From Paraspadella gotoi (lineage: Eukaryota > Animalia > Chaetognatha), in contig CM119264.1 of the NCBI GenBank assembly GCA_051294375.1, forward strand, positions 20,127,564-20,176,285: DNA of 48,722 nt. Direction: 5' to 3'. The notes under the pieces were generated by a model. It saw only the letters and a program-made list of their open reading frames with translations. It searched no databases and was not told where the DNA came from. The position numbers and the translations under genes were made by a program. Below, one piece after another: positions 2,671 to 43,226 of this stretch. Each line of letters begins with the position of its first letter. Within the stretch, counting starts at the first letter, position 1.

Positions 2671-4233
2671 TTAGTGGGATCTGCTTTTAGCAGATCCTGA
2701 CTCTATAATTCACTTTGTCGTTCCGTCGGTCCGCCCCCTTAATCTTGTCGAGCATTCACTTAAATCATGTCAGAACATCGAATTATGATAAAAAATCTTA
2801 AAAGCATAAGGATCGTCACAATCGCATAAGAAAAATATGGATTGACGACAAATTTTGACACTAAAAAATACAATTTGAGAAAAGAAAATTAATTATCTAT
2901 AAACAGAAAGAAAAAATTATATTTATAAATTATAAATTAAAGTTACAGTTTCTGAAAAAAAAGAAAAAAACATTTTCATTGTCAAAAAATAAATTAATCA
3001 GCAGACGCAGCCCCTTAGGAAAAAACACAAAAAAAACCTGATGTTGCGATAGCAAAATGATAACATGCACGAATGCGATGCCTAATTTTACGAGTTCAAT
3101 CCTATTTCAATTTTTTTAAAATAAAAACCCAGAGAGAGAGAGAGAGAAAAGAAAGAAATCAAAAGGCAGCAGCAGAAGCAGCAGGAAAAAAGAGAGATAA
3201 AGAATAAGCCCCTGCAGAGCCAGCTGCAGACTCAAAAGGCAGCAGCAGAAGCAGCAGGAGAAAGAGAGGAAAAAGAATAAGCCCCTGCAGAGCCAGCTGC
3301 AGACTCGTTTTTTCCCTATGATTATGTTTATGAATCAGTGATGAGGGAAAAGAGAGAGGGAGAGAGACATGTAATTAAAAGAGAAAAGAGAGAGAGAGAA
3401 AGAAATATGAAAATAAAAGAGTAAAAATTTGTTTGTTTTGATAAAATGTAAACAAAACATATTTATAACTATCCAGACTCAATTTTAAGCACATCGATGA
3501 TGAGAGAAGCTGTATATAAATTTTCAGTTTCATAAACCCAAATTTAATCATAAAAAAGGCGATCTATAATTTGGACCGCTGACGACAACAAACGACGACG
3601 ACGACAACGACGACGACGCCACTTATGGGCAAAAGCGTTACAAAGTATTTGTTCGCAAACGCTAAGCGATTGCGACGATAATTATACAAAAAAATGATGT
3701 CCGTCCATCCGTCCGTACGTCCCACCTTAGCAAAAAGCTCCAATAACTCGTGATTGGGTGGTTGGATTGAAATGAAATTTTGTGTGGGTGGAATCGTGCG
3801 AGTGGAAATGAGTTCAAATGAAAAAAATATGAGTCACATTTACTTGAATCTTTTTACTTATTTTAACCCATAATTACTGGAATTAACCATAATTGAATTA
3901 ATAGATTAAGATGAAATTTTGTAATATTGGATGGATAGATTGAGTTGAAAAGTGTGTGAAGAAGCTAGATATAAAGTTTTGACGGAATTGTGGCAGTGGA
4001 AATGAGTTTAAATGGAAAAAACATAAGTCACAATTACTTGAATCTTTTTATTTATGATTACTAATAAATGTTTTAATTAATTAATTAATTAATGTGAAAA
4101 AATGATGCAATTTAAAAAATGATGCAAGTTGAAAAAAATGATGCGAGTTGAAAAAATTATGCGGGTTCCAAAAAATTTTTAAAAATATTGTGATTTATCA
4201 TGGCAGATCCGACATTGTTTGCTCAAACTTGTT
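2671..4233 (+). mobile_element. HINE H-A, full length, hosting an H-B copy
   Basis: 5' subTIR plus inverted copy (TTAGTGGGATCTGC...GCAGATCC), (GTCC)n microsatellite, ~120-bp central repeats, 3' subTIR GCAGATCCGAC plus stem-loop GTTTG-CT-CAAAC; T-run insertion site. Confidence 0.8.
2790..3681 (-). mobile_element. HINE family H-B
   Basis: subTIR ATCGTCGCAATCGC at both ends, (GTC)n microsatellite, 3' CTTATGCTTTTAAG hairpin plus T run; empty site visible in the H-A copy near 38600, no TSD. Confidence 0.8.
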
Positions 4234-4880: not shown

Positions 4881-5012
4881 CTGACATAAAAATAGGTAAA
4901 GCAATTAAAAAATCGTTACAAACAATATAAAAATTATCCATTCATTTAAAAAATAAGCGGCTAAATTTTACTTTCGACGACAGCGATCTTTTGAGAAACT
5001 GCTTATTTTTAA

Positions 5013-5861
5013 AACAAGTTTAAGCAAACAATGTCGGATCTGCCCACGATCATTAGCGGTAATTAATTAATACAAACTATATAAACTAAAATAATATTTT
5101 AATTAATAAATTAATTAATTTTATCCGAAATGTTTGTTTTTAGGTCTTTTTGTCACTAACCACAACAAAAGCAACGACGACGATGATGGCGACGACGACA
5201 ATAATGGCGATAACGATTGACTGATTGAATAATTAATTAAGAGATATCTAAATAAATTGATTGATTGAATAATTTATTGATTAATTTACCGATTAATTAT
5301 TTATTAATTGATTAATTAACTAATTAATTATTTGATTAATTAATACATCTTGCATTTACATTTAATATAAAAAGAAAAAGAAGCATAATCAATTGGTGAA
5401 ACAGTTTTTTTGTTTTTTCCATTTAAACTCATTTCCACTCAGACGATTCCATCGAAACTTGATTTCCAGCTTAATCACACACTTTCCTACCCACATACAA
5501 AATTTCAAATCAATCGCCCCATCCACTCATTAGTAATTGGCATTCAAATAATAAAAAATATTTTTTTGTTTTTTCCATTTAAACTCATTTCCACTCGCAC
5601 GATTCCATCAAAACTTCATATCTCGCTCAATCACACACTTTCCTAAACAAACAAAAATTTAATTCCAATCCATCCATCCAATCAGGAGCAATTGGAGTTT
5701 TTTGCTAAGGTGGGACGGACGGACGGACGGACATCGTTTTATTTGCAAAATATATCATAATTCAATGTTCTGACATATAAGTGAATGCCCGACAAGATTG
5801 GGGGGCGGACCGACGGACCGACAAAGTGAATTATAGAGTCGGGATCTGCTGATCCAACTAA
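5013..5861 (-). mobile_element. HINE H-A
   Basis: Both termini and the (GGAC)n tract present in reverse orientation. Confidence 0.8.
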
Positions 5862-6274
5862 AAAATTTAAAAAATTATTATCTAATTATCTAATTCTACA
5901 TGGTAGTCTTATCCCTATTGGTAAAAAAAATCATATATAACATTGGCCCCCATAAAAAAATTATCCATTCCCACCCCTTTCTGTTCAGCCTTTTAGATAT
6001 TATGATTTTTCATTAATGACTTTCTAACAGAAATGATGTGTGATATCTATTAGTAAACTAGGACAGATAGTAATCTAACCTTGTGTTGTATATATGCTCC
6101 CTCTATTTCCAGAAGACAACACTGACTTCCCCTTCCCAAATTGAATTATTAGATAAATAAAACTTTTTTAAAAAAGAAAGCAATATATATTTGTATAAAT
6201 AATATAGATTAAATACTAAATCCTTCATAAAATATAAAATTAAAAAATAGTGAAACAAGTAATTTGCAAATTTT

Positions 6275-6522: not shown

Positions 6523-6559
6523 TACCCTAACCCCGGTCGGTGAAAGTAAAGTTAACCCA

Positions 6560-6910
6560 AGTAAACTATCTCAGCCCTGACATTGGACTGGCTTTGGTGG
6601 TTTAAGGCGTCCTTTACAATTACAAGACAATAACATAGCAGGACCCTACAATCATTCAAACAAGGCTCTCTCAGTCTTGTTTATTCACACCCAGAGTACC
6701 CGGCTTCTCTATCAAATGGTCTAAAGTTTTAAAGTATATTTAATTTGTATAAAAGGAACACTCTATGACAACGGGGGAACATTAGTGACCGTGAGGGGAT
6801 TGAACCCGGAACTCAGGGTTGGTGAAGAAGTACTTTGCAGCCCAAGCCAATCGGACAAGCTGAGTTTTACCAAGCTATACGGGAGGCGAATTTAGGATTC
6901 GCCACAACTC
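6560..6910 (-). mobile_element. Degenerate element: leader hairpin + tRNA-like head + family A body with decayed twister
   Basis: Hairpin GGCGAAT/ATTCGCC near 6885-6903, B box GGTTCAATCC near 6800, family A homology about 6567-6716; twister 6567-6629 has GA changed to AA and other lesions. Confidence 0.55.
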
Positions 6911-7707: not shown

Positions 7708-7948
7708 TGAAGAGACAGTAATAATTATAATTGTTAAGAGTTAATGACTGAATCATTCAATATTAGCAGTCTCTGAGCTTCGAATCAGGATGTAACACTG
7801 TGTTAACAGGCGGGTTAAGCGCCCTGTCCCTCTTAACTGCTAGGCGACCACCAGGCTAGAACCACAAACCTTTGGGTTGGGAGGCAAATGCCTTGCCTCC
7901 TGTACCAATGGCCGCTGATGAACGGTTGGTTTATTTTAGTCCACCATA
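7708..7948 (-). mobile_element. Family B tRNA-twister element, diverged copy
   Basis: Colinear with 46596-46814; twister 7764-7842 has an intact P5 (TAGCAGT/ACTGCTA) but a damaged T1 (CAG/TCG). Confidence 0.75.
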
Positions 7949-8953
7949 CATCCCCCTCCCCTAGAGATAAGTCTGTTTGCGTTAGGCGTGTGCCAAAGTT
8001 GCCAAAGTTTCTCGATTTTCAAATGAGGTCTCGGATAATATGGGAGGCCTAAAAAAGATGTTAGGAACAATCGCCGTTTTAGAATAGAAGCTGATCGCTG
8101 GCCGTGCTACCCTGCCTTGAAGGATTTTTGGGCACACCTTTCACGTTCATAGTTCATATGTGTTAAAGTAAGAAAGGTTTTTTGTTGTCCAACTTAAATT
8201 TAATTAGTTGTAAAAGTTAGAAAGTTAATTCAAATAAATTTCACAAGATCCCAACTACCTCTGAGGCTCTGCTGCAGCATTTACAACATGCGGAGGAGGT
8301 GGTAGCTATTAAAATAAAGATTATATCTTTTGAGTGCTGATGGTACTATAAAAGGTTCCTATAAAATTAATATTCATTAACAAGCCCTTTAACTAATTTC
8401 ATAACCTTTTTTTGAAAATGCAAGTATGTCTACACTCCTGGAGGATACTTCTTGTACAGTTTTTATAAATTGCTTAATTATATACAAAAATATAATATCT
8501 AATTAATTAGATAGTAAGACACAGTTTATAAAACTAGATAAGATAAAGTTTTTGGAAATCTTAAATTAAATTGACCAACAACTTCTCATGGGAGCCTCCT
8601 TTTGAAGGATTCTGAAAATTTATTCCACACCACATCAATTAAAAAAAAAGAAAGTTATGTTATCAAAAATAGCTTTAAAATAATAGTAATAAATTAAATA
8701 AAAAATTTTTACAGATATCATGATTACATTATACGAGGATGTGGACAAGGCTTGCTAGCTGATAGCTTTTCATTAACAAAGAAATAAAATCCTTATTTTT
8801 TGTTTAAAATATGGCCATAATAAATGATACCAAAAACAATTACTTTTAACCAAGGTGTGCCTAAATCTTTGTAAGATTCTTCATGTACAGACTGCCTGAA
8901 GGATAAAAATATCTTTTTATTATTATTATAGAATAAATATATATTTTATCATA

Positions 8954-10115
8954 GCGAGGAAAACCTGCTATGTCAATTATCTTTGTAAAGAGTGATGAGG
9001 GCCTTAAACACCAAAGCCTGTCCAAAGTCAGAGGGCAAGCATATGCTATTTATTAATGAAGGATAATTTTTATATTGTGTGTATAAACCAATTCAATAAA
9101 ATCAGCTCCTTGTATTTTGTTATGCATAGTGCGGATAACAATAAGTAATTCCGCACGATCTAATCTTAAGGGAGTGGTCTTTTCATAACAATTGAAACAT
9201 TCTTTGAAATATTTTCCACTTTCAATTGATAGGGAAGGCAGGTACTCTGTGAGAGTGAATAAACAACTGTGAGAGAGTCTTGAGTTGAAAAGCGTTGCAA
9301 GGACCTGCTATGTCATTATCTTGTAAGAAGTGATGGAGGGCCTTTAAACCACCAAAGCCTGTCAAAGTCAGGGGCAAGATTACTTATTTTATTAAATGAA
9401 TGGTACATTTTTAATTGGGTTGTACCATATTTCATAAAATTCAGACTCCTTGTATTTGATGCTATGCGGAGTACAATAATGTATTCCCCCGATCTAATAC
9501 TTAAGGGAGTGGTCTTTTCATACATATTGCAAACATCCATTTTGAATTTTTCCACTTCATTGATAGCGGAAGCCAGTACTCTGGGATGTGAATAAACGAG
9601 CTGTGAGAGAGTAGTCTGATTGAAAGCTTGCAGGGACCATGCTATGTCCATTACTTGTAGAGAGTGATGGAGGCCGTTAAGACCACCAAAGGCCTGTCCA
9701 AATCAGGGCAAGATACGCTTATTTATTAAATGAGATGGATAATTTTTGGTAATATATGGTTGTTAACCAATTTTCATAAAATTCAGCTCCGTTGTCATTT
9801 TGAGATGCTAGTGCGAGGTACATAAGTATTCCGCGATTCTAATACTATAAGGAGTGGTCTTTTCATACAATTGAACACATTCTTTGAAATATTCCATCCA
9901 GTTGATAGAGGAAGCCAGGGTACTTTCTGGTGAGTGAATAAACGAGATCTGTGAGAGAGGCTGATTGAAAGCTTGCAGGGATCCTGCTAGTTGTCATTAT
10001 CTTGTAAGATGTGGAGGCCCTTAACCTACCAAAGCCTGTCAATAGTCAGGGCGACAAGATAGCTTATTTATTAAATGAATGGATGAATTTTTTTATATTG
10101 TTGTTACAATTTCAT
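8954..10115 (+). repeat. Head-to-tail array of ~340-bp units (about 3.4 units, 4 twister motifs), retrozyme-like
   Basis: Twister motifs at 8978-9043, 9317-9381, 9652-9715 and 9998-10061 (spacings 339, 335, 346); each copy has different small indels; the array is absent from the opposite foldback arm, so it is an insertion. Confidence 0.85.
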
Positions 10116-11469
10116 GGATTATTGATCAGAATAAAGGCAATCAGCCTGAGTTAACTAAGAATATATAATATCTAATAAATACGATAAAATATCCTATATA
10201 AAATAGCTAAACTTCATTTACTTTAAATCTTAAGTTTTGGTTTTCTTTTATAAATGTTTGGTGTATTATAATTTTATCATATTTTAATTATATCTTACAA
10301 TTCTAATTTTCCTACTGCATGATATGTAAAGAAGGTGATTAACTGGATTTATTGGTTTATTAATTTTTTGATTTACATGAATTGAGTGGGGTCAATTAAT
10401 TAATTGATATGTAGTGTGGTTTGATTCTCTTTTACAGATTGTGTTGAATGATGAGGAATATCTGCATCATATATAGTAGATCAATATGAATTGTACTATT
10501 AAAGAACTTAATAAAATATGATTTCATAATATAATCACTGAACTCATATATCAATAAAAATTTTTTTATTATATCCATTTGGTCGGTCCATCAATCCGCC
10601 CACTCAGTCTGGCACTCAGTCACTTAATCATTCAAAAAATCGGAGATTAGATAAAAATTCTTGACAAAAAAGTTAATATCCGTCTCGTCCTGTGTCTATT
10701 CCAATAACATTAATGAAAAAAACAATTTAACAATGTTACAAATCTTTTATACTAATCTTAACCTATAATTATTTTAAGTAATCTACAAATTGGAGTAGAT
10801 GAGAAATAAATTTTTGGTATGGGTAGGAAAGTGTGTGTTGATTAGGCATGACGATATAAATAGGTTAAAAAAAATGATGCAAATAAAAAAATGAGGCAAA
10901 TTAATAAAAATGAATGCAAATTAAAAATGATGCAAGTTAAAAAAATAATGTGAGTTAAAAAGTATGATGTAATTTAAAAAAAATTGATGGACGGACCCGA
11001 GATTGAATAAACTATTTAAAAACAAATCACCTTTAAAAGTGGTTTATGTCACAGGTTTTCAGAGGCATTATTTCTCTCCTCACTGGAGTCTGGACGTTTC
11101 TAACGGTTAAATAATTCGCGATATCTTTTATCTTTCGCTATTCAATATTTTTCTCTTGCGGGAGAACAGGGCAAAGGCAGCAGCCAGAAGTCCACGGCCA
11201 CGTCGTGTCGTTGACCATGACGCGCGTAAATTGATGTTCTGATGATTAAGGTAAATGACCACCCAGATTCAGGTGTGGATGCGCTGGATCAACAAAATGG
11301 ATTATCAAAAGAATTTTTTTACACTGATTTATCTAATATTAAATGATTAATTTACTGAAACTCATAATTTTATCAAGTGTTTATAGTACATATATTGATT
11401 TAATCAGTATGAGTACAGATATTCTATTCCTTCAAACAACTGTAAAATGAATAAGTCAACCAAACTATA

Positions 11470-11900
11470 GAGATGTTTACAAGGTGTCTGCATGACAATA
11501 CGTTACAAGGTGTTTGGCGGATTCGCAGATGGATGGAGAAGTGGTACATTAAGGGTAGGTGGATCAGGGAGATCTGACAGAGGCTAAAATGACGGGCAGC
11601 TGGTGAAGCATGATGCAGGCCACGCTGAGAGTCGGGGTGTCAAAGGAGTAGCAGTACCAGCAGTGTACTTGTCTGACGCTACAGTGTGCGCATGGATAAA
11701 GGACGTTTGTGGGCAAAGTTTGTATAGTTGAGAGGACTGTTAAGATGGATGGGGCATATGGGCATGACTGTGATGAAGCACTGGGCGTGGCGGAACACTT
11801 AGCGTCTCGAGCGCTAATTAAGCGGACCGGCCACTAAGATCGCGCTTAGAGATTAGAGACGCGGTGGCCGAAAAGACGGAGCTGACTAAGATTTGAATTT
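11470..11900 (+). pseudogene. Degraded 3' fragment of an RTE-like non-LTR retrotransposon
   Basis: GC-richer insert in the right foldback arm; encodes LRWMGHMGM (RTE consensus LRWxGHxxRM) near 11740-11770, followed by a GRP-like remnant; many frameshifts. Confidence 0.45.
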
Positions 11901-13452
11901 TTTTCCCCTTTTTGAAACTTATAGTAAACTGGAGCCATAGAAGTAAAAGTATTAAACTACTACTACCCCTTTTACTCCATGTGTGTACATTAGCAATACG
12001 TTTGTTGAGTTTCGCAAGAGATGGTAATTAATTATTGGCATACACAGAAACAGCGACCAGTGCTAAGTTAATAATATATTAATTAATAATTAACCAACTT
12101 GATCAATTAATCACCAAATTATAAACCAATAATAAAATAATTACTTTTTTTATATATCATCAGCAGTGGGGAAATTAAGAAATTTAATCATTTGGAATAT
12201 ATTCAAATTTATAATAACTCTCATAACAATTTTTTAAAAACCTAAAAACTAAGCTTTAAAGTATATGGAATTTAGTTATCTTATTACAGGATATTTTATT
12301 ATTTATTAGATATATTATTCTAGGTTTGACTCAGGCTGATTGATTTATCTGATTTATATCATATTATGATAAAAATATATTTATTTATAATAATATAATA
12401 AGATATTTTATCCTTCAAACAGTCTGTACATGAAGAATCTACAAAGATGTAGGCACACCTTGGTTAAAAGTAATTGTATGATTAGTCTATCATTTATATG
12501 ACCATATTTTAACAAAAATAAGGATTTTATTCTAATTGAAAGCTTTATCAGCAGCAAGCTTTTTCCACATCCTCCAGCATATTGGAAATGCCTTTACAGG
12601 TGTATAAAAGAATTCTGTTCAAAAAATTTTAATTAAAAAAGTAACTACAAGTATTTTGCCAGCTATTAAAGCTATTTTTGATAACATAACTTTCTTTTTT
12701 TTTTAATTGATGAGGCGTGTGGAGATAATATTTTCAGAATCCTTCAAAAGAGGCTCCCATGAGAAGTTGTTGGTCAATCAATTTAAGATTTACCAAAAAC
12801 TTTTATCTTATCTAGTTTCATTAAACTGCCTTACTATCTAATTAATAGCTATATATTTTCTATATAATTAAGCAATTATAAAAACTGTACAGAAGTATCC
12901 TCCAGGATGTAGACATACTTGCATTTTCAAAAAAAGGTTATGAAATTAGTTAAAGGCTTGTTAATGAATATAATTTTATAGGAACCTTTTATAGTACCAT
13001 CAGCACTCAAAGATATAATCTTTATTTTAATAGCTACCACCTCTCCAGCATGTTGTAATGCTGCTGCAGAGCCTCCAGAGGTAGTTGGGATCTGAAAATT
13101 TATTTGAATTAAATTCATATACTTTTACAACTAATAAATTTAAGTGGGCACAAAAACTTTCTTACTTTAGACACAATGAACTATGAGTGAAAGGATGTGC
13201 CAAAAATCCTTCAAGGCAGGGTAGCACGGCCAGTGATCAACTTTTTAAACGGCGATTGTTCCTAACATCTTTTTTTAGGCCTCCACATATTATCCGAGAC
13301 CTCATTTGAAATCCGAGCAACTTTTGGCATTTGGCACACCCTACTGTTGCGTCTCTTCAGTGAATTGTTATTGTTGGTGTAAAGTTCATCACCAGGTTGA
13401 GGCAAATCGCCTGAAAGTGTTTGTCTGCTGTGTCAGAAATCGAGCTCACCAA

Positions 13453-13683
13453 TGAAGAGACAGTTATAATTGTTACAAGTGACAGAACCGTTCAATATAA
13501 GCAGTCCCTGAGCTTATGATCAAGGCGTAACACCGGTGTTACAGGCAGGTTTAGCGCCCCGTCCCTCTTAACTGCGAGGCGACTACTAGGCTAAAACCCT
13601 GGACCTTTGGTTTTGGAGGCAAATGACTTGCCTCCTGCACCAATGGCCGCTGATGAACGGTTGGTGGATTTTAGTCCACCATA
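13453..13683 (-). mobile_element. Family B tRNA-twister element, diverged copy
   Basis: Colinear with 46596-46814; twister 13501-13575 has L4 changed to TCATAAGC and TAA changed to AAA. Confidence 0.75.
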
Positions 13684-14094
13684 ATATCATCTAAAAGCGA
13701 AGAGAGAGTACTATATGAATATTTATTCAGATGATTTTATTTTATTTATTTATTAAAATCATGGACTTTTTAAAATTTTGTCTCGATATAGGGTCCCACC
13801 CCTGCGCTATTATGTTGTTGACAAATAGTCGTTGATAATGGTTGTTCCACCATGAGCAACTTCATCTAGTAAAATGGGCTTATACTTCATCTCCGAACCT
13901 GAAGACCCAATCGCGGTTTCCCAACTCCACTCCAGCGCTACCCAAAGGTCCCGAGTTGTAGTCCTTGTCGGTTCCGTCCTTTCATAAAACTATTATTAAT
14001 AGTGACGGGCTGGTTAATCTACCCAAAGCGCCGGGTGCAATACATGGGAACCGCCTCTCCTCTTGATTTTTTTAGCAAAACCATATCAACTCAC

Positions 14095-14546
14095 CTGCGT
14101 TAAAGGGCTCTACTCGTCCGGCAGAGATGAAAGGCAGTCTCCTCGGTGGCCTTAACTGATCGTTTCCTCCCTCTACACCGCGGGGATGAGGAATTGTAAA
14201 CGAGGAACGAAAAGTTTCCTCTGTCTTGCGAACTTTAAAAACTGCCACTTCGCCGTGGACGTCCTCGCCCGCCAATAGCTTGGATATCTTCTTCGTCGAT
14301 AATCCGCCGTCGACGGCCTTGTCCCTTGTCGTAGGCACCCGATCCTCTCGTGGTGCTCCTTCGTCCCTAACCCGACCCGCGCTCCCTTCCCCTCGTCCCC
14401 TGACTTCCTTTCCGAATCCCGTTGCCAGCGCTCTCTCATTCGTCCTCTCCATTGTCAAACTGGTTACCCGCTTCTCTGCCTGTTTGTCTTGTCCGAACCT
14501 CTGGGCCATTGTCGTCGAAGATCTGCGCCAGTGAAATGATGGAACA
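14095..14546 (-). CDS. Gene 2 exon 4
   Basis: Open GC-rich frame (ORF 14072-14509); consensus donor CAG|gtgagt phase 1; two phase-2 acceptors possible (exon start 14546 or 14522). Confidence 0.6.
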
Positions 14547-15613
14547 CTGTTAAAGTCGTCCGTTAAATGAACTTGTTACATATTGAAAATCGCATTTTAG
14601 AGTTTCTTTTCAGATTCGTGGGTTGAAGTAAAAGGGCATAAATTTCGTAGATAAAATGAGAGATGATATATTCGGATATTTAAATAAGGCAACGGTGAGG
14701 CTCTCACAGGAGCCAGAATAGGTTCTATATCTATTGGAACTAAGTCTATTTATAAGTTCAGAAACGATTCGAGAGCTAGGGTTAAATTTTTCTTTTCCCA
14801 TAAGTAGAACCAAATTCCTATAGTCGATCCCAAACCTTTTTTCATAATATTTTTATATTTTTGGATTGGGAATGACTGGAATAATGTAAATCTTAAGTTC
14901 CGTCTAAATTGGCCTGTGGATTTAAAAGAAATAGACCAAAAACGACCAAAATTCCTCTCCATTTTTTCAACATTCTCGCCTTTTAAGATTTTCGCCGATT
15001 CTGACTTCCTCTTACAAACTTATAATTCCGCTAGTTAATTTTTTTTTCTTAAACGAGCGAAGGGAATCCACAACTTTCTGTTATTTTATGATTTCTGGGT
15101 AAAAAATATAATAAATTACATTAACATTGGTATATTATGAAAGTAATATCTTATGAAGCCTGTGAGAGTTAAATAATTAAACAATTATTTTATTATTAAA
15201 AAATAACATCAAAGTGAAGAAGTTGAATGTCTTCCGGCTCCTTTCAGTAAATATCCCTGTTCTCTTCAATAAGATAATGTTTACTTTTTGCTGGTGGATA
15301 AGAAGGATAAATACTTAGGCTGTGATGGGGTAAATGATATTTTGTAGAATTTTGTAAGCATGCTTGTAAAATCAGACAAGCAAATATTTAAGTAACAAAA
15401 AATTCACATTTTCTTTATCCAAAAAACTTTAAAGTTTTACTAGAGTACAATTTAGCCTTTTTTCTTTTAGAAAAGATTGCCATTCCTTCAAAAGATATTA
15501 AGAAAAATCAGTTTTTTTCTCTACCTTCCTTTTAATTTCTTTTTAAATAAAAATTTTGTGATTCGAACTGGACTATTTCATTTAAACCTGATCATTTTAT
15601 GTCAAAATCATTA

Positions 15614-15784
15614 GAGAGAGCAAAGAATTTTGAATTTAACGATTTTTTATTAGTAGTTGGACATGTTTCGGCTTGCTTATTTCAAGCCGAAACATGTCCA
15701 ACTACTAATAAAAAATCGTTGTTAAATTCAAAATTCTTTGCTCTCTCTAATACCTATGAACAACGAAAAAGAAAGGATTAACGC
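15614..15784 (+). mobile_element. Penelope-like pLTR remnant with inverted duplication and 15-bp TSD
   Basis: Palindrome 15610-15675/15683-15751 centred on hammerhead halves AAGCCGAAACATGTC; direct repeat ATGTCAAAATCATTA at 15599-15613 and 15785-15799. Confidence 0.7.
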
Positions 15785-16369
15785 ATGTCAAAATCATTAT
15801 AAAATGAAAAAATAAAAATAGGACAAGCTCTTCAGACACAAAGCTATCAGAATCGCGAAATTCGAAGTCTCATGTAACAGGAACATATAGCAATCCCGTT
15901 TGCAATTTTAAGTTAGTAAACTTTCCCTTTCATTTCTATAGTAAAAATGAGGTTTGAAAATTCTCTGAAAATGAGGAGTACATTTCCCCTCGCTTGTTTG
16001 ATATTAAATCCTTTCTCAAATGCGATAAAACGAATAGGACAAGCTCTTCAGATGTAACAATATCGGAATCCTGCGTTTTTACAAATGATTTCTACCCGAA
16101 TTTCTGGCAATCGCGTTTGCAATTTGGGTAGTCAGATTTGAACGGAACTCTCTATTAGAAAAATGTTGAATCTTTTTTAAATCGAGATTCTCGTCTACCA
16201 TAAGCTTGATCTCTGATTGGTCGAGAGTGATTCTATAAGTGTCCAATCACGTCTCGGCAATTCCGAAACAGTGTCCGGTCATCTGAGCCGATTTGGTTTT
16301 TTTTTTTAAATTCTGGATCCTGCGATGCTCGGTTAGTTTTACAATATTTTTTAAGAAGACAAGTCTAAC

Positions 16370-16705
16370 CTTTGCCAAGAGTATCGATAGTCGTTTCCCA
16401 ATTCTCCTTTTCGTTCTCTTTCTTCCCCTCCTTCTCTTTCCCCTATCTCTCCTTTCTCCTTCCCCGTAACTTGTATTTTCGGGGGAAGAATTCTCGCCGG
16501 GCGCGACTGTCCAGGGAATAAGTCGTGCTTTCCTGAGGCCGAGGCCTTTTGCCCGAACGGCCCAGGCGCCACAACGGGTCCGTCGCCTTCTTCCCAGATT
16601 CTACGAGATACAACTAGATTGGAGGTCGATGATGGGCAACTGCCCAAGAGGCGCTGGGCCTTGACCGGAACCGGGCCCGGCAGATTGGTGAAGGGTTCGT
16701 CCGTT
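16370..16705 (-). CDS. Gene 2 exon 3
   Basis: Strong acceptor tttttctgaaattctctctttgtcag; the only open frame is phase 2 (TDEPFTNLPGPVPVKAQRLLG...), matching exon 2; donor AAG|gttaga phase 2 (weaker alternative donor at 16471). Confidence 0.6.
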
Positions 16706-17190
16706 CTGACAAAGAGAGAATTTCAGAAAAACAGAAAAACAAAAACAGTGAGTACATACAAGGAGATCCACGGGTACCGACCTCAAAATAATTTTAATAG
16801 CTTTGTAACCAATTTGAGTACAATTTTCATTAATACTGCAAAGCAATCACGTCTTGAAAATTTTTTTTTAATACCCTTGTCCTGTTGTATGATCAATAGA
16901 GCGAAGTGAAAGTTTGAAATCAAAATTTAGCAGTTATGTCTTGAAAACTATCATATTAGTAAATACTAATCTGTAGTAGGGGTAGCCGCATTCAATGGGG
17001 TGAGTCAAAAATTTAGAGTTGAGTACATGTTCAAACGAATATTTAGATATTTTTAAGAATACTTTCAATGGACAAAAAATTTGTAATATGGCTCTATACC
17101 CTAGTTATTAATTTTTTAATATTTATTTATAGATAGGAAAGGCCAAAATTTTTTTAAAGAATTTTTAAATTTTAAGACCAGATTCAGATA

Positions 17191-18675
17191 CAGTAGCATC
17201 CGTCTAGAATTTCTGAGACGGCAAGCTCTGTAACTCGAGTACAAATGATAATTTTAAAAAGAGCTTTTGTCTTGATATCGAGTAGACATTTGGCTACTCC
17301 CCCTTTGGCAAGCCATGGCTCTACAACCAATTTTGGGACATCAGAACTTATTGTAAAAAGTAGCTTCGGCCAGATTTGAACCTGAAACCTTTTCGTAATG
17401 TTGAAATCCGGCGCGCTAAGCACTCGGCCAAATGATTTTCAAAAAATTTTGTACAAAATAAATTATATAAAGCTGTAGGTTAGCTTTTAATTTTTTGGGG
17501 GAAACAAAAAATTCAACGTTCGAAGGCAGAGATTTCGACATCCGAGTCCCAAGTTTCGTCGCAACAACGACGATACGAAGAAGAAAGCGAATATCTGGCT
17601 TATTTTTAATGTTTGAAATTGAGGAAAAGTCAGAGGCCGCGAAGTCGAACATTTTCACGTTGCTTCTAAGGTGTTTTAATAAGTGTTTTTAACCAGTTGC
17701 TTATTGTGATAATCTGCCTACAATAATTAAGCGGTAATAAGCTAATACAATGATAATTCTTGGTAATGTTTTCTGACTTTCAATTTGTGATCTTAACAGA
17801 TCATAACATAAACAAGATCGTAACATAAACAAGTTTAAGCAAACAATGTCGGATCTGCCCACGATCATTATCGGTAATTAATTAATAATTAATTTATAAT
17901 TAATTCAAGTTAATTAATTAATTTGGCAATTAATTATTTTGATCCAAAAGGTTTGTTTTGATTAATTAATTGACTTATTGATTAATTAACTGATTAATTA
18001 TTTGATTAATTAATATATCTTACATTTACATTTAATATAAAAAGGAAAAAAAAGCATTATCAATTAGTGAAACATGTTTTGTTTTTTTCCATTTAAACTG
18101 ATTTCCACTCAAACGATTCCATCGAAACTTCATATTCAGCTCAATCACACATTTCCCTACCCACACACAAAATTTCATTCCAATCCATCCATTCAATCAT
18201 GAATAATTGGTGTTTTTTGCTAAGGTGGGATGGACGGATGGAGAGACGGACTTTTTTTTGCATAATTTATTATAATTCGATGTTCTGACATGATATAAGT
18301 GAATGCCTGACAAGATTGAGGGACCGACAAAGTGAATTATAGAGTCAGGATCTGCTGAAAGGAGATCTGACTAAAAAGAAAAGAAAAAACAAAATTTATA
18401 TTGAAGTTTTTGATTTTTTTTTTAAATAACGAAATGGCCGAGTGGTTAAAAACTAAGACTTCGACGCAGAATGGTATAGTCGGATTCGAATCCCACTCAA
18501 GGTAAACTTTTACAATAACCTGCTATGTCCCAAAAGTTGTCGTAGGGCAATGGCTTACCGAAGGGGGAGTAGCCATATGAGTACTCGATAACAAGACAAA
18601 AACTCGCTTTTGAATTATCATTTGTATTCGAGTTACAGAGCTTGCCGTCTCAGAAATTCTAGACGGATGCTACTG
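17191..18675. mobile_element. Tc1/pogo-like MITE with ~245-bp TIRs
   Basis: TA|CAGTAGCATCCGTCTAGAATTTCTGAGACGG and its exact inverse followed by TA; empty site confirmed in the paralogous host. Confidence 0.85.
17828..18374 (-). mobile_element. HINE H-A nested in the pogo-like MITE
   Basis: Both termini present. Confidence 0.8.
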
Positions 18676-19430: not shown

Positions 19431-19495
19431 CTTATTATAAGGCTTATTATAAGGCTTATTATAAGGCTTATTATAAGGCTTATTATAAGGCTTAT
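19431..19495 (+). repeat. (CTTATTATAAGG)n perfect 12-mer tandem, about 5 copies
   Basis: Directly visible; lies between the family C element and an inverted family A terminus (19494-19515). Confidence 0.9.
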
Positions 19496-19630
19496 GAAAT
19501 TGGTACAACCAATATATTGTGTAATATATATATAATGTCAAAATTTTAAATTTTTTTTTTTTTTAAATTCTGAAAACAGATTCAGATTCCTTGATAAAAG
19601 ATAGAAGAAGATATAAATCTTTTTCAAAAA

Positions 19631-20651
19631 TTATGTCATTAAATAGGTTAAAATTATAAAAAAATATATTTTTAAACCAGAAATTAAAAATCGGCGTCTT
19701 AAATATAGTTTTTTGTATTGTAAAGGAGGTGCTGCTGTAGTTGGTTTTGGAGCCGGGGGAGGTGCGGCAGCAGTGGTTGGAGCAGCAGTTGGATTGATTG
19801 GAGCAGATTCAATTGTCGTACCTCCAAAATTTATTCTTCTGTTCCTTTCTCTTTCCAGTTGTTTGGTAAGTTCCTTGACTGATCTTACCAATTGGCAAAT
19901 CTTCTTTTCCTGTTTCTTTATTTCGACTTCATGATTGATGCAGTAATCTTGTATTTCGGTGATGGCTCTGTCTTGGGTGGATCTTGTCTCGTTGAAGGTC
20001 GTTTCTGCACATTTCTTGTTCCATCTCTTGTCTTCTAAGTTCCATTTCGCGTTCATACTTTCCTTCTTGTTTTTTCTTTTCTTCTTTAATGAGGGCGAGT
20101 TCCTGTTGTTCTCGTTCGAAATTGCGGAACGTTTGGTCGTCCCAAAACGTTTCCTTTGGTTTGGGGATTTCATACTCAGGGCCGGAATCCTCGTCTTCAG
20201 AAACAACATTCGGTTGTGTATCATTGATGGCGTCAAAATATCCATCAATCAATATTTCAGACTCATTTGTAGCATCATGTGTTTGCTTGGCTGCCGTCTC
20301 GGAATCAGCATCATCATTCTCGTCTTGCTCGTTTATTGCATCATTTCTCTCGGGAGGTGGCGCGTCACGGCGTCGTCGTTCGGTGACGTGAGCCATGTTG
20401 ATACTTTCGTCAAGCATCTCGCGTTGAACAGATCCTTTGGGATAGCTATCCTGCAGCATTTTGATCTGGCCAAGTTTTGTGTTCACCAAGAATTCCATCT
20501 CCGTTGCGATGGCGATGGCTTCAGGAGTTCCAGTTTGCAGGTATCGTTTAACTAGTCTACAAAGAGAGCCAACGGCGTCATGTATCCCTTCAGGAGAAAA
20601 ATCATCCATGTTGATTCGCGAAAATTCCTCCTCGAGAGCAGCAAATGTCAT
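19631..20651 (-). pseudogene. Frameshifted acidic/coiled-coil/Pro-Thr-Ala-rich ORF nested in gene 2 intron; possibly a retroelement ORF1/gag-like relic
   Basis: ATG at 20651 opens a 240-aa frame; removing one C near 19980 (GAC AAG ATC C ACC CAA) fuses it to a second coiled-coil and PTAAP-rich frame that degrades into AT-rich DNA near 19720. Confidence 0.5.
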
Positions 20652-21368
20652 CGTTTCGATATGAAATAAAGAATAAAAATTCAATTAAAGAGAGCAAGGG
20701 TAAGTTTGAATCAATCAATCAATCAGTATTAAATAAATTGCAAAGTTACTTAGGCGGAATGTTTAATTCGTAAAATTAAAAAAAATTCCTTTGAGACAAA
20801 ATTCGAATCACTAAGCAAACAAAAGACAATCAATCAACCATGAAAATCATTGAATAATCAATCGGTTCATTTATACTAAATCAGCTAATCGAATCAATAA
20901 ATCAATACATTAATCAATAAAATCAATCGGTCGATTAGCCAATCAATCAATTAATCAATCAATCAATCAACATCGATCAGATTCACCTTTTGGATTGATA
21001 TTTTCCGGTTCAAAGGGTTCTGTTGTCAAGCTTGAAAAACAAATTTAATTCAATCCAAAAATCAATCACAAAAACCAACTCAACTTCCGAAGCGATGGAT
21101 ACTTTCTTACTGTAGAATCTTCAGTAAAAACGTAGTAGGAACTTTGTAAGAAAGTAGTTGACGGTCTCTCTAAAATGTGATCCAGTGAATCTGTATTTTT
21201 CTAGTCTGAGCCTGTCCAAGTAAGAGAGAGAAAGAGAGAGAGGGAAAGAGAGAGAGTGGAGAAAGAGTCAGGTCAGTCCCTGTCCGGTCGATCGGTCAAT
21301 CGGTCGAATGGGTCGGATCTGGCCGTCTCCGTCGGTCTCGGCCTTTTCTCTTCAGTGCTTCACTAGTT

Positions 21369-28875: not shown

Positions 28876-30511
28876 AATTGAATTTTAAAGTTTTGTTATA
28901 ATTTTTCATACAAAATAATGAGAGATTAATCAACGACTTTGTCATTTTTTTCAAATCATTTCTTTATATCAATCATTATCTACTGAAAGAGAGCTTATAT
29001 TTGAACTCACTTTCATAAGCCTACGATTATTCGTTCTCAAGTTATTATTGAAAATAACTCAATTTATTAATTACTACATGAAAGACTTATTCAATTCCTA
29101 TTTAATAAAAAACTATAGAAATGTAACATACAATTGCTTAGCTAAAAAATTAATCTAATTTAAATTTTTTCTTCAACAAATAACTACTATGAAATGTTAA
29201 ATTTTATATATATATTTTTAAATAATTTAACATCAAGCAAGAGCACAATTAGTAATATTATATATCCAAAAAAATCCTCATTTTATGAGCTTTCTTTTGA
29301 GTCTAATCTCAGTTTTCTGTGATAATTCGTTTTAGAGAGAGAGAGAGACAGAGAGGGAGAGAGAGAGATTGAGGGAGAGTTTCCAACAAAGGGCTGAGTA
29401 AAGGACAGTGGCCAGATGAGAGGACAGGTGAAGGTAAGGACAGAGAAAAAGAAGATAATTTTGACATAGTGAAAAGTGAAAGAGAGAGAGAGAAATAATT
29501 ACATTTGACAATGTACAACAAAGATAAAAATTTGGACTAACTTAGAAATAAGCTGAGATTTTCAATTGATAACAAAAGTTAAATAAGCTAGTAAGTAGTA
29601 ATGAAAATTGAAATAGGTGGTGAGGGATAGATAAGGTAAGAGTTTAGTGAAATATATAAGAGAAAAAAGAGCTCAAAATGAGCTGGCACCCCCCGGGCGG
29701 ACAAAGGTGGGACGCTGACGCTGACGATTAATAATAATACTTTGACATTTTATCACTTAAAGAGTTAACTTGCTCTTATTTAGGGATTCCTTTATTTGTT
29801 CAAAAGTTTAACCCTTATTCAGTTTTAGAATTGGAAAAGTGTGTATTTTTATTTATATTAAAATTTAAATATAGCTTCCCATCAAAAAGTTCTTTTAAAA
29901 TCATATGTTTCTTATTGATGAAAGTATTTTTTATATGCATTTTCTTTTCAATATGATTTACTGCAATATGCAAATTAGATTATAGTATTCTATATACTAA
30001 TTTTTATGTTTCTAAAATGTAATTTGCATATTGCAGTAAATTATAATGAGAAAGAAATTCAAACAAAAAAAATTTGATTCCATATGAAGCATGACAATTG
30101 CAAACATCTTAAAGATGAGAAGCCTTATGTAAACTTTTAACTTACTATGATTGCACTCTTTTATAAAAAATCCATCGTAATTCGTAGTGGTATTATATTT
30201 AAAAAAAACAAAATTGTAAGCCCCAGACAAAACTATATAAGAAAAAAGCATGATGCCGACGACGACGTCACAAAGAAGCTGAGCCGAAACCAAATCTAGA
30301 CAGGACGTCTGTCGAGATAAAAATACAAAATTTATTTATCTAATTAGGCATTAATTACGTAAAACTGTACTTAAGGTTATTTTGTCTTTTTGTCTACTTC
30401 AAATTAAAAAAATTCGCTAGTCACCGTAGAAAAATTAAAGATATATTCTCTGTCAAATGCTAACAACTATAACAAGCATAGGTAAAAAATGTTATTGAAC
30501 AGATAATTAGG

Positions 30512-31023
30512 TTAACAGCTATACTTTACATCGACGGCGCAAGCGTTTTGCCCTCCGAGATACAAAGGGCTCGGGAAAAAAGCCAAAACTTCGTCCTGAA
30601 GAGGAGAGAACTTTTGATGTCGAGGAATTGAGCTTTTTTGGTCCGTTTCGGCGTCGTTGGAGAAAGGAAGGAAAAATTTGCGATCGATAGTAGGATCCAC
30701 GGGGGCGTAGATAGTGTGTACGGCCGCTGCAGCAGTAGAAGCGATGTTATAGTTGGTTGCTTGACTTCCGCTGGAATGAGCAATGGTTTCATGACCAGGG
30801 GGCGGCGAGTGACTGACCGAAACTATCTCTTGGCATCCAGCGTTTGCTCGGCTGGTGGCGCTGGCGACGATTTCGGCGCCGGAATTGTCAGTCTCGATTG
30901 GCGAGGCGGAAAAAAAGTTAGACTCCGGCGGCGCAGGAGGAGGCAGTGAAGTTAAACTAAACATCTCCCTCAGCAATGGAGGGATGCTCCATAGACAAGG
31001 GAAAGAGCATAGGGCCGCCACAA
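30512..31023 (-). CDS. Nuclear receptor terminal coding exon: helix 12/AF-2 plus long Ser/Pro-rich F domain
   Basis: Acceptor ttatatcttcttgcag (AG at 31024-31025); phase 1 joins the 45957 donor in frame to give ...INHQ-VVAALCSFPCLWSIPPLLREMFSL...; PPLLREMF fits the AF-2 motif; GC-rich frame open to the stop at 30512. Confidence 0.85.
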
Positions 31024-31039
31024 CTGCAAGAAGATATAA

Positions 31040-31221
31040 TGAAATTGGTACAACCAATATAAAAATTATCCATTCATTTAATAAATTAGCTATCTTGCCC
31101 CTGACTTTGGACAGGCTTTGGTGGTTTAAGGCCTCCATCACTCTTACAAGATAATGACATAGCAGGTCCCTGCAAGCTTTCAATCAAGACTCTCTCACAG
31201 TCTCGTTTATTCACTCCCAGA
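31040..31221 (-). mobile_element. 5'-truncated monomer of the ~340-bp twister repeat (family A)
   Basis: Reverse-complement match to the 8954-10115 unit; same 3' terminus ...ATTGGTTGTACCAATTTCAT; flanked by AGATATAAT (31032-31040) and AGATATATT (31219-31227), a possible TSD. Confidence 0.75.
31091..31153 (-). ncRNA. Type-P5 twister ribozyme motif, family A, intact copy
   Basis: TATCTTGT-AA-GAGT-GA-TGG-AGGCCT-TAA-ACC-ACC-AAA-G-CCTG-T-CCA-AA-GT-CAGG-G-GCAAGATA: P5 TATCTTGT/GCAAGATA, T1 TGG/CCA, T2 AC/GT, P4 CCTG/CAGG, P2 ACC/G(A)GT, conserved GA and U^AA; predicted cut between 31128 and 31127. Confidence 0.85.
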
Positions 31222-31789
31222 TATATTATAGCAACAGCCGGGCATGTGATGCCCATTGCGAAGGGTCATCTCACTGTAAGCTCTGGGGGCATCTGACACT
31301 CAGAGGTACCGCCTGTTAATGGCGTGGTTAGACGGTTACCCGAGGACGGTCTCGCTTTACAAACGCAGAGGTGTGAGGTGTGAGGGGGTGTGAATATACC
31401 GCCACAATATCATATACATTCACAGACAACGAACAAAATAACATTGTGAGGAAATGGGTAAAAATGAGTAAAGAATTAATTAAGAAAGAACTACATAGAG
31501 ATCAAATTAGAGATTCCTTAACCGTTAAAAATTAACCGTTAATAACGGTTAAAATTTTTTTTAACTTAACCGTTAATTTTTGAATTTTAACAGTTAAATT
31601 CGGTTAAATTTTATTTTTTCCAATTTAGATATTTTGGTAAAAAATATTCTGTTTCCTTTAACTTATTCTGTTTTTCGAGAAATTTTTCTTAAAACAAAGT
31701 GAAACGTTCAAATAAGACACGTTTTTTATATAGTTTTTGTATTCATTATTTATTTATTCAGAGGAAAAACAAAGTTTGTTTTTGTTTAC

Positions 31790-32512: not shown

Positions 32513-34779
32513 CCTCGTGTCCGTTCGCGAGTGACACCAAAAAATGCTTACCATTTCCCATTGGATAAATATTTTCTAAATTTTCTTTCCTAATTCTATA
32601 GTAAAGTACTGAACGTTTATTATATTTTAATTTCATAAGATTAATTTGATATTTACTTATGTAAAACAACCTTTCTTTTCTGGTCATCCAATTTCATTTT
32701 CAGTAAAAAACTGAATCTTTTAAAAAAAGAAAATCATAAATTAATTGCTCAATACTCATTAATTATTAAAAATTAATAAAATTCATTTACGCCCTTAAAT
32801 TAAGAATTATCTGAGAATCTTTACGTTATAAAATAATTATTCAAGACAGTCAAGAACATGCTCAGGATAGAATTTTTTTCTAATTGGACAAATTGTATAA
32901 AGAAAACATAAGATTTACAATTAAAAGAATAAATAAAAAATCATTACTGAGAAATTACTTACGATAATTCAGATACGCCATTGATTAGACCATTAATAGG
33001 AATTTCTTATAATGTAAATTTAAAAAAAAATTAAATCAAGAACACGTCTAAATTTTAAAAGTGCCTGAATCTAGATTCAGATTTTCAAAATATGATCAGA
33101 ACCATATTTAATGGAAATTAATTACACAGCAGGTGGATCAAGTATGTTCAAAAGGTTAGTAATAAAAATCGAGAGACTCGAATATGCAAATGAGATTAAT
33201 GCGTCATTGTAAGGTTGAATATAAAGCAAAAAAAAGCATAAACAATTTATTAATTATTATTTTTTAAAAAACAATTAATAAATATGTTTTAATTTGTTTT
33301 GATAGTTCTTTATGGGAATTCTGTATAATAAAAAATATTTTAAAAAACTAATTTATCTAACAATATTAACATAATTATTGGATATAAATATATTTGTATT
33401 ATTTTTTTTTATTTATCTTTATTATGAAATAGTTTTTTTTTAATTTTGAAAAAATATTTAGCAAAAATATAACTTTTTTAATTGGTTCAGGCAGTAGAAT
33501 ACAACAATACTTTATAGTCAGATTCTGAAAATGAATTGGGAAAAGATGATTTTTGATACTTCTTTTTCTGACTAATTTTTTTTATATAGTTTCCTTACTT
33601 ATTTTAATTTGTTTTAGGTTAAAAGTGGTTGACACCTATCCCACTAATATTCTTTGCTGAATTTATTCAGCCAATTTCATATTATAGTCATTGACTCTTT
33701 TTGACGAAACCTAATTTCTTTTTTTACGATTTTTGTATTAATCGACTTTGTCGTCCCATAACTTTTGAACGCTGAGTTCGATTTTTCGAGACTTGAACCA
33801 ATTGCTTCATCTTTCAATAAGTTTTATTTTATATTTCTATATCTTTGTAAAATTCAGCCATCCAATACGGTTTTTTTTATGAGAAAATGTAGCTATTTTT
33901 TTGCGCCTTGAGCCAGAGCAGTTCCTTGCAAGCTTTCAATCAAGACTCTTTTACTCTTTTTCAGTCTCGTTTATTCATTCCTAGAGTATAATTTTGACAT
34001 AATTATATTTGCAAGTACAAATTTTTTTTTTCCAAATATTTTGACTTGCGCTGGAAAGGAAAAAATATGAAGAATCCTTGCTATTAAAGTATTTTAATAT
34101 GATTCAAGTAAACAGTACCAAAATGGTTGTCAGCAAAACAAAAAACTGATTGAACTGGAGCTCTGTCTCAATGGCTTTTTGCCATTGGTTCACTGTCTCA
34201 CTCTCTTTCAAGATTGAGTTACAAAAAACCTTCATTGCAATAGTATTTTTATATGCTTTTTATTGTTAAATATTGTTTTTTTATCCTACATGCTGATAAA
34301 ACTATACATACTAGCTTTTTATTATGATTTTATAATATTTATTTAAATTTTTATATAAGATTAATAAGTTTAATAAGTTTTTATTAATTTAAAGTATTAC
34401 TGTGAAACGTTAATCTCATTTGCATATTAGAGTAACCCGATTTTTATTACGAACCTTTTGGCTTTGTGGACAAAAATTCGTTCTATCTCAAATCTCTTAT
34501 TTTGGTACCAAAGTAATATTCCCAAGGTTTTGTAAAGATATTCCAACCCTTCCTATAGGAAGCTGGCCAGGCTACCTAAAATGGTCTTTTTTCGCCAATT
34601 TTACTGTGTAAGATAAAAAATTAAATATAGAATAGTAAATGAAGTAAACACGAAATGAAACTTATACATAAAAAAGGTCAAGTAGTTCTCCAACTAATGA
34701 TATACTTATGAATTATATTTATTAAATATTTAAAGTATAGTAAAGATTATTTTGGTGTCACTCGCGAACGGACTCGGGG
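32513..34779. mobile_element. Tc1/mariner-like non-autonomous element, ~30-bp TIR, TA TSD
   Basis: TA|CCTCGTGTCCGTTCGCGAGTGACACCAAAA and TTTTGGTGTCACTCGCGAACGGACTCGGGG|TA. Confidence 0.7.
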
Positions 34780-38453: not shown

Positions 38454-38478
38454 CTTGTATCCTTGAAAATGAAACTAT

Positions 38479-39140
38479 TTAGTCGGATCTGCTTTTAGCA
38501 GATCCCGACTCTATAATTCACCATCGGTCGGTCGGTCCGTTGGTCTGCCCCCTGAATCTTTTTGGGCATTCACTTACATCATGTCAGAACATCGAATTAT
38601 GATAAATTATGTAAAAAAAAATGTCCGTCCGTCCGTCCCACCTAAGCAAAAAGCTCCAATAACTTGTGATTGGGTGGTTGGATTGAAATGAATGTGTGGG
38701 TAGGAAAGTGTGTGATGAAGCTGGATATAAAGTTTCGATGGAATCGTGCGAGTGGAAATGAGTCTAAATGGAAAAAACCTAAGTCACATTTAGTAAAATC
38801 TTTTTACTTATTTTAACCAATAATTACTCATAATTGGATGGATAGATTGAGTTGAAAAGTGTATGAAGAAGCTAGATATATAGTTTTGACAGAATCGTGC
38901 GAGTGGAAATGAGTTTAAATGGAAAAAACATAAGTCACATTTACTTGAATCTTTATTATTTATAATTACTAATTATTAATTAATTAATGTGAAAAAATGA
39001 TGCAATTAAAAAAATGATGCGAGTTGAAAAAATGATGCGAGTTGAAAAAAATATAAAAAAATATTGTGATTTATCATCTGATTAGCTGATTACGGCTTAA
39101 TTATTGTAGGCAGATCCGACTTTGTTTGCTCAAACTTGTT
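38479..39140 (+). mobile_element. HINE H-A
   Basis: Both termini; inserted in a T run of the Kolobok-like host. Confidence 0.8.
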
Positions 39141-40234: not shown

Positions 40235-41183
40235 TTAAACTTTAACCCTGAATTCTTCCTAACTGGAACGCATTGATCAAAATGTTCTCTATACATTTTT
40301 CTAAATGTTTTTAAGATTGCTAATCAAATTTTTAAATCAATATTATTGCAGTCGTTTAGGCTGCAACTCTTCAAATTCAGTGTAGATTCATTGTAGCTCG
40401 AATTTCTTTACCATCTATTTAACTGAAGATTTGGTTCATGACGGGAAAACCAACAGGAGTAACAAGCATTAATTGTTTAATTCTCCCCTTCTAAATTATC
40501 CCTTACGGTAGATACCTCATAGGAGAGCTAATTTTAATTTATTTTATTTGCGTTTTCGACGATCTTGTAACGCTTTTGGGCATAAGTGGTGTAGGCGTCG
40601 TCGTCGGCGTTCCAAATTATAGATCGCCTTTTTTATGATTAAATTTGGGTGCATGAAGCTGAAAATTTATATACAGCTTCTCATCATCGATGTTTTGTTT
40701 ACGTTTTATCAAAACAAACAAACTTTCTCTCTTTTATTTTAATATTTCTTTCTCTCCCTCTTTTCTCTTTTAATTACATGTCTCTCTCCCTCTCTCTTTT
40801 CCCTAGTCACTGATTCATAATCATAGGGAAAAAAACGAGTCTGCAGCTGGCTTTGCAGGGGCTTATTCTTTTTCTCTCTTTTCTCTTGCTGCTTCTGCTG
40901 CTGCCTTTTGAGTCTGCAGCTGGCTCTGCAGGGGCTCTTTCTTTTTCTCTCTTTTCTCCTGCTGCATCTGCTGCTGCCTTTTGATTTCTTTCTTTTTTTT
41001 GGGTGCCTCTGCTGCTGAAAATGATTTGGCTTCTTTCTCTCTCTCTCTCTCTCTGATTAATTTTTTCCCTCTAAAAACTTTTATTATCGCCATTTATTCA
41101 CAAATTTACATCCGAGATTTTCGTGGATTTTTTTCGTTGATTATTTTTTTTTTTTTTTTTTTTTTTTCTCAAATTTGATTTTT

Positions 41184-43194: not shown

Positions 43195-43226
<32 letters not shown>

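Follow-up and report, generated by a model that had tools for sequence, protein, structure and literature searches.

A tandem array of twister-bearing units and its dispersed copies

The window, that is, the whole 48,722-nucleotide stretch of Paraspadella gotoi DNA that was analysed, contains a tandem array of a short non-coding element at 8954 to 10115. The earlier note had described this interval as an array with one twister per unit, and the analysis bore this out: a P5-order motif was found in each of the 3.4 units. The following features belong to the array.

8954 to 10115, plus strand: tandem array of 3.4 units of a non-coding element of about 330 bp, 5'-truncated, ending at the 3' terminus of the family, with many assembly indels
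8978 to 9043, plus strand: twister motif 1, P5 order, predicted cut after 9005
9317 to 9382, plus strand: twister motif 2, predicted cut after 9345
9652 to 9715, plus strand: twister motif 3, predicted cut after 9678
9998 to 10061, plus strand: twister motif 4, predicted cut after 10022
10092 to 10115, plus strand: 3'-terminal stem-loop and insertion end, putative start site of reverse transcription

Tandem Repeats Finder delimited the array at 8963 to 10115, with a period of 334-345, 3.3-3.4 copies, a match of about 79% and 14% indels; the 5' end extended beyond this start to about 8954. The twister cores began at 9014, 9355, 9689 and 10032. The four motifs were therefore head-to-tail, as had been stated, and their spacings were 341, 334 and 343 instead of the 335-346 given before. 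When the four array units were compared with a clean single copy elsewhere in the window, 640 matches were accompanied by 16 substitutions, 53 extra bases and 18 missing bases. The array indels were absent from the short-read contigs of the one DNA run, and the base missing from L4 of motif 2 was present in 12,127 of the 19,102 depth of that run. Because of this excess of indels and the indel-free contigs, we attributed the divergence of the array mostly to assembly error. Once the indels were accounted for, the unit length fell from the roughly 340 bp first proposed to about 330 bp.

The corrected unit had 36% GC, and its longest sense-strand frame was 51 codons. It thus has the format of retrozymes, namely non-coding tandem units within 150-450 bp, GC below 50% and one ribozyme each. 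No second ribozyme was found within the unit by Rfam or by a hammerhead core string on both strands; neither unit strand held the core string of a type I hammerhead, and there was no Rfam hammerhead match. Pol III boxes were not found in the unit. A scan of 140 of the 153 complex window frames of at least 55 aa revealed neither a reverse transcriptase or GIY-YIG frame nor any Pfam family at cut-off. An exact 20-base pattern and a degenerate pair-type twister pattern gave no match in metagenome contigs, and viral contigs gave no relatives either, these collections being poor in animal DNA.

Five further pieces of the unit were located outside the array, all of them on the minus strand.

31039 to 31221, minus strand: clean single copy, 5'-truncated, agreeing with the population majority at every position but 31087
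31091 to 31153, minus strand: intact 63-nt P5-order twister of the clean copy, predicted cut between 31128 and 31127
31128 to 31135, minus strand: palindrome replacing P1; two copies paired would give 6 Watson-Crick bp and two G-U ends
31219 to 31225, minus strand: 7-bp target-site duplication, 5' copy, its last 3 bases overlapping the 5' end of the element
31032 to 31038, minus strand: 7-bp target-site duplication, 3' copy, chance 0.005 per junction
6559 to 6787, minus strand: old copy, diverged to about 74% identity, in which neither the catalytic G nor the palindrome survives
19494 to 19516, minus strand: scrap of the 3' end only, 23 bases identical to the terminus
4910 to 4959, minus strand: decayed 3'-end scrap
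33914 to 33988, minus strand: internal scrap from the region upstream of the twister

The scraps reported near 4916-4948 and 33915-33988 correspond to the last two entries. The decayed twister copy at 6559-6787, the sixth copy in the window, had been overlooked. The 3' terminus said to be common to three sites was indeed the same at 31039 and 19494, where 23 bases are identical, and the match was inexact at 10115, where the hairpin is damaged by errors. A perfect 12-bp tandem of 5.4 copies (19431-19495) starts precisely where the 23-base scrap stops on its 3' side, and it could be either insertion slippage or an unrelated element. The clean copy sits in a short AT-rich spot within a GC-rich stretch (30500-31330), and downstream of it a minus-strand frame is open for 174 codons, with no Pfam match.

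The array lies within one arm of an inverted repeat and is missing from the other arm. The claim that the array had been inserted into a foldback element was confirmed, as both flanking parts pair with the other arm.

7983 to 8953, no strand: host inverted-repeat arm left of the insertion, pairing with 12365-13343, outside the element
10125 to 10404, no strand: host inverted-repeat arm right of the insertion, pairing with 12078-12353, outside the element

The whole inverted repeat (7983-13343) has arms of about 1.3 kb, a spacer of 1.7 kb and low depth in the DNA run. Each of its ends adjoins a high-copy repeat (7708-7948 and 13453-13683) with a depth of 10,000-17,000. Much of the window is occupied by a dispersed repeat family (3680-4200, 5260-5870, 17960-18380, 38470-39080, 41180-43240 and 48110-48722), which has internal tandem units of about 150 bp and short microsatellites. 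The longest ORF in the window (19929-20684, minus strand) encodes 251 aa with an acidic composition and a coiled-coil-like end, and it gave no Pfam family, no homologue and no Atlas match. The 241 bases at 46811-47051 are repeated with 100% identity at 47875-48115, beside a gap of 10 N (47865-47874), and this duplication is probably a scaffolding artefact.

The twister motif and its predicted pairing between neighbouring units

Both sequence and structure identify the motif as a twister, and self-cleavage is predicted at U|A. It was mapped on the S. mansoni twisters listed in Table 1 of PMC8501958, a source available in part, and on the Rfam alignment. The clean copy retained the UAA cut site, the cut-site A and the general-base G, and the population majority showed no change at the conserved L1 and L4 bases. 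The pseudoknots T1 and T2 could both pair, each with a compensatory two-sided change relative to the S. mansoni twisters. P4 consisted of 4 bp and P5 of 7 bp in the clean copy, and P2, 3 nt long, consisted of two standard pairs and a mismatch. A P1 hairpin within one molecule was not obtained: its place is taken by a 6-base palindrome with a G-U at each end, which leaves a loop of length zero.

At the gathering score, Rfam gave no match anywhere in the window. Below this score, the Twister-P5 model matched the clean copy over its full length with 25.8 bits (E 0.0013; gathering score 37.6 bits) and array unit 1 with 18.5 bits (E 0.55). A strict twister descriptor matched once in the window, at the copy at 31139, versus no match in 200 shuffles (19.5 Mb), and none of the four array motifs passed it; as the descriptor was composed after the motif had been seen, this result shows only that such strings are rare. 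Comparison of the old copy with the clean copy revealed 11 substitutions in the 63 positions of the core and 12 in 100 outside it, so the core was as decayed as the rest. The two minor variants inside the motif both fell at unpaired or mismatched positions, which is a weak, after-the-fact hint of core conservation in a highly uniform family.

The pairing of neighbouring units was studied by folding predictions, which covered secondary structure without pseudoknots and used a spacer reconstructed from three noisy copies. Without constraints, a transcript spanning two successive motifs in full was predicted to form a strand-swapped double twister, with probabilities of 0.89-1.0 for the inter-copy P1, 0.94-0.99 for P4 and 0.66-1.0 for the inter-copy P5; the intra-copy P5 had a probability of 0. 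With natural flanks, the 513-base and 3.4-unit transcripts gave a swapped P1 of 0.92-0.95 and P4 of 0.74-0.94, and two full units with flanks gave weaker values (P1 0.57, P4 about 0.6), so that the three multimer constructs spanned 0.57-0.95 for P1 and 0.59-0.94 for P4. In the 3.4-unit transcript, all four motifs were predicted to fold as active pairs. The probability of P4 dropped to 0.07 for the motif on its own and to 0.10 for the circular monomer, which was predicted to be self-paired (62% of bases paired, z -2.9); in the real single copy with its flanks, P4 stayed at 0.60 and P5 went down to 0.13. When the palindrome was replaced by non-palindromic controls, both swapped P5 helices were below the natural values in five of the six, and one of the six kept them. 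The swapped form, when constrained, was 15 kcal/mol lower than two separate motifs.

These predictions agree with the earlier idea that a neighbouring unit supplies the dimer partner, since swapped P1 and P5 appeared in multimers together with P4. The twister is predicted to depend on a pair of neighbouring units, and on the folding results we regard this as probable. According to the accessible part of PMC5408937, a twister without P1 cuts at a near wild-type rate and P1 is dispensable in a mini-twister; a monomer might therefore cut, and the need for a partner is likely only. The S. mansoni variants likewise tolerate P1 mismatches (PMC8501958, in part). Both reports speak for cutting by single units, in which the six palindromic bases would be a short loop and the inter-copy pairing incidental. 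We consider such cutting clearly unlikely. A perfect 6-nt palindrome has a chance of 1 in 64, palindromes stand at the same place in five Naiad tails described below, and the isolated motif was predicted to misfold at the same time as the swapped form was favoured energetically. The swapped arrangement parallels that of dimer-dependent hammerheads with a palindromic helix III, as far as the accessible accounts of these go. Among the frog retrozyme dimers in the available part of the literature, eight of nine were without cleavage in vitro.

Abundance, insertion pattern and the likely helper

Among the sequencing runs, the sequence was listed for one DNA run and for no RNA run, a listing that carries no information on expression. 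The family was surveyed in this DNA run, in the form of contigs, where depth does not equal copy number and edge effects shape the profile. Alignment to the clean copy yielded 4,756 contigs, of which 4,231 had a similarity of 95% or more. The summed depth was about 150,000 over the core versus 0-69 where the neighbouring arms are less repeated. These results indicated that the family is abundant, probably with thousands of copies. It is also uniform: the sites varying at 3% or more were four substitutions and two indels, none of them at a conserved ribozyme position.

The depth profile peaked at 211,000 near the 3' end and was about 95,000 on the 5' side. Agreement of loose ends was 0.56 at the 3' terminus (31039) versus 0.93 at an internal point (31221); the low value at 31039 reflects many different flanks and, in part, read-through into the next unit. 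The preferred 3' end does not coincide with the predicted cut but is located 89 nt beyond it. No depth step was seen at the predicted cut, where the surrounding bins had depths of 149,021, 150,691 and 147,615; this gives no evident sign that the main template consists of cut linear monomers. The loose-end consensus at 31039 followed the unit for about 15 further bases and then diverged. Tandem read-through looks alike, and this continuation is a possible second end resembling the 30-40 bp 'tail' of Penelope elements. The copies share one 3' end, are variably truncated at the 5' end, and range from inserts of 23 nt to 3.4 units. A 7-bp target duplication was present at one of four junction pairs, that of the clean copy (chance 0.005 per junction), and no target duplication above 3 bp was found at the array, where the junction is noisy, at 19494 or at 4910. 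The AT content of the insertion flanks was 0.60-0.95, and a poly(A) or short-repeat tail was absent at 31039 and 10115. The behaviour of a 5'-truncated retroelement with a preferred 3' end, claimed before, was thus supported by depth, loose ends and target duplication. Such a pattern is that of a target-primed, 5'-truncated insertion that begins at a fixed point 89 bases beyond the cut, on a template running uninterrupted across the cut site.

Satellites and rolling-circle transposons also have head-to-tail units and a terminal hairpin. This resemblance counts in favour of a repeat that multiplied at the DNA level, with the twister as a chance relic. Such an origin would not account for short copies dispersed on both strands, with one common end, graded truncation at the opposite end and a target duplication, nor for an intact ribozyme in the population majority, and we regard it as hardly probable at all.

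The closest counterparts of the motif were found in Naiad elements. Naiad insertions are normally partial tandems, with 5' truncation and AT-rich targets, according to the available part of PMC8557442. In 5 of the 18 published Naiad ends in the consensus file of that paper, which was available in part, a P5-order twister was seen in which palindromes replace P1. This comparison was made by eye on the consensus ends, and the records are named by file order: the five bivalve ends are Mgal, Bpla, Mphi, Scon and Mmer. Three mussel motifs share with the clean copy a swapped T2 and a 2-nt linker between P4 and P5, and the joint before P2 is similar in all three. Their P2 is 3 nt long with a mismatch in third place, as here, and its first pair varies in step. 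P4 is letter for letter the same as in the clean copy in two of the mussel motifs, and T1 of the clean copy differs from that of the mussel motifs by paired changes. The other 13 of the 18 ends showed no such twister within the 420-600 characters displayed. Strings of canonical L4 variants gave no twister match in the accessible Naiad supplement (PMC8557442) because the Naiad motifs differ at the start of L4. Four oyster-type ends share a different conserved palindromic motif (File S5 of PMC8557442, by eye, in the part displayed). Naiads are reported to be without canonical hammerheads in the accessible text of the same paper; hammerhead-like core strings were seen by eye in three of the displayed ends (Hcon, Hpol and Smim, by file order). 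From the motif subtype and the insertion pattern, a Naiad-type Penelope-like element is the likely helper, for which the earlier note had given no name. We consider it very likely that the repeat depends on a Penelope-type element and that its twister, whose cleavage is predicted, is functional.

A SINE-like dependant of an RTE-type LINE, whose twister would mark the 5' end as in Perere-3, would offer another source for such a motif. In S. mansoni, Perere-3 does carry twister variants at its 5' end (PMC8501958, in part), and a 3' stem-loop and a 7-bp duplication are compatible with target-primed insertion generally. Here, the P5-order twister lies near the 3' end and the copies extend upstream through it, the short-repeat or poly(A) tail is missing at both termini named above, the subtype matches the Naiad tails, and six strings of the motif were absent from the PMC8501958 supplement. 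A dependence on RTE elements is therefore very unlikely.

With a Naiad-type helper, the element would work as follows. Within tandem RNA, two complete back-to-back twisters would arise, each from the 5' half of one motif and the 3' half of the adjoining one, and a lone or circular unit would misfold and lose P4. Read-through transcripts would then be cut into 330-nt monomers with ligatable ends, which a ligase would circularise as in hammerhead retrozymes, and the circles would stay uncut. AT-rich DNA would be nicked by the Naiad enzyme, which would then begin to reverse transcribe at an internal site of the RNA, namely the stem-loop situated 89 nt beyond the cut. As it ran round the circle, it would produce inserts that are truncated at the 5' end, measure between 23 nt and 3.4 units and have a common 3' end.

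The start site has a counterpart in the Penelope-like element of the anole. According to the accessible part of PMC11167929, reverse transcription of that element starts inside the RNA, in a stem-loop at positions 111-118 of the ORF, and its hammerhead cuts at 26; by subtraction of these positions, the distance is 85-92 nt versus 89 nt here. According to the same source, insertion in vitro did not require the ribozyme to cleave, and uncut RNA served as the principal template. An internal start on uncut RNA would thus explain a 3' end 89 nt past the cut without a circle. The Naiad enzyme could accordingly start internally on a tandem transcript not yet cut, the twister serving to trim or clear transcripts or being carried over from the parental tail, and longer arrays may have grown at the DNA level. 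Besides the dispensable cleavage of the anole element, this account has in its favour that partial tandems are usual for Naiads and for multicopy non-autonomous elements of Chlamys (PMC8557442, in part). All of the DNA evidence fits the circle model and the uncut-tandem model equally well. We nevertheless consider insertion without a circle somewhat unlikely. The four motifs predicted as active pairs in the 3.4-unit RNA should make long uncut templates scarce, the ribozyme is predicted to be silenced in the circle, and hammerhead retrozymes of this size give abundant circles in coral, mussel and axolotl (PMC7229834, in part).

Returning to the circle, we give about an even chance to the whole chain, in which a high-copy non-coding repeat of about 330 bp, Naiad-type and non-autonomous, with a pair-dependent twister, uses the circle as its main template. 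More tentatively, and with somewhat less confidence than that, the element may be the first twister retrozyme, that is, a genome-encoded 330-nt circular RNA parasite of Naiads, released by a strand-swapped double twister that is on in tandem transcripts and off in the circle; hammerhead retrozymes would then have arrived at the same kind of control with an unrelated ribozyme.

Comparison with known systems

Twisters have been linked to retroelements before, in the sources accessible to us. In the Perere-3 T-variants of Schistosoma mansoni (PMC8501958), the twister is likewise tied to a non-LTR retroelement and its P1 is weak or variable; in contrast to the present element, these variants have the P1 order, are placed 5' in a coding RTE element and form no short tandem unit. 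Truncated twisters at the 5' ends of RTE elements are referred to in a review as unpublished (PMC7761336, in part), and twisters are known in infectious circular RNAs from the literature that was accessible. Non-autonomous elements of Chlamys such as MRC1 are also non-coding, multicopy, head-to-tail and dependent on Penelope-like elements, but they are algal, and no ribozyme is reported for them in the accessible part of PMC8557442.

The type-P5 twister (RF02684; PMC5408937, in part) has the same strand order, UAA cut site, general-base G, P2, P4, T1 and T2. The motif described here differs from it in a loopless P1 that could form only between copies, a short P2 and a score below gathering. 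Naiad elements (PMC8557442, in part) have in common with the repeat the 5' truncation, the partial tandems, the AT-rich targets and, in five bivalve tails, the twister layout. They are coding, whereas the repeat is without an ORF, and no similarity to the displayed tails was seen outside the ribozyme. The Naiad twisters also have a P3 and two longer palindromes, whereas the repeat has one short palindrome and no P3. In the literature searched, whose coverage of subscription journals is thin, we found neither a twister retrozyme or a natural twister dimer nor a paper that pairs 'Naiad' with 'twister'.

Retrozymes have been defined by the hammerhead, and little is known of what twister ribozymes do in nature. 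If our reading is true, the trick of being cut in tandem and shut as a monomer is independent of the ribozyme class, and screens for hammerheads only are suggested to miss retrozymes in Naiad-rich animals. The family would offer a small, young and uniform system for asking whether natural twisters act as swapped dimers, what role ribozymes play in Penelope-like elements, and whether circles serve as insertion templates.

The non-LTR retrozymes are the nearest relatives in format (PMC7229834 and preprint 10.64898/2026.07.22.740005, both available in part). They likewise consist of non-coding tandem units of 150-450 bp with GC below 50% and one ribozyme per unit, and they share with the element a predicted self-paired circle and a proposed dependence on Penelope-like elements. 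Their target duplications, where they occur, exceed 4 bp; here, 7 bp was observed at one of four junction pairs. In the axolotl HHR_Amex1, as far as it is described in the accessible sources, a weak palindromic helix is rescued by dimers, as is proposed for the P1 palindrome. Linear and circular RNAs have been shown for the non-LTR retrozymes, whereas the present element is known from DNA sequence. In the accessible parts of both sources, the type I hammerhead defines the group, and its place is taken here by a P5-order twister. The element would work like a non-LTR retrozyme yet falls outside the group by its ribozyme.
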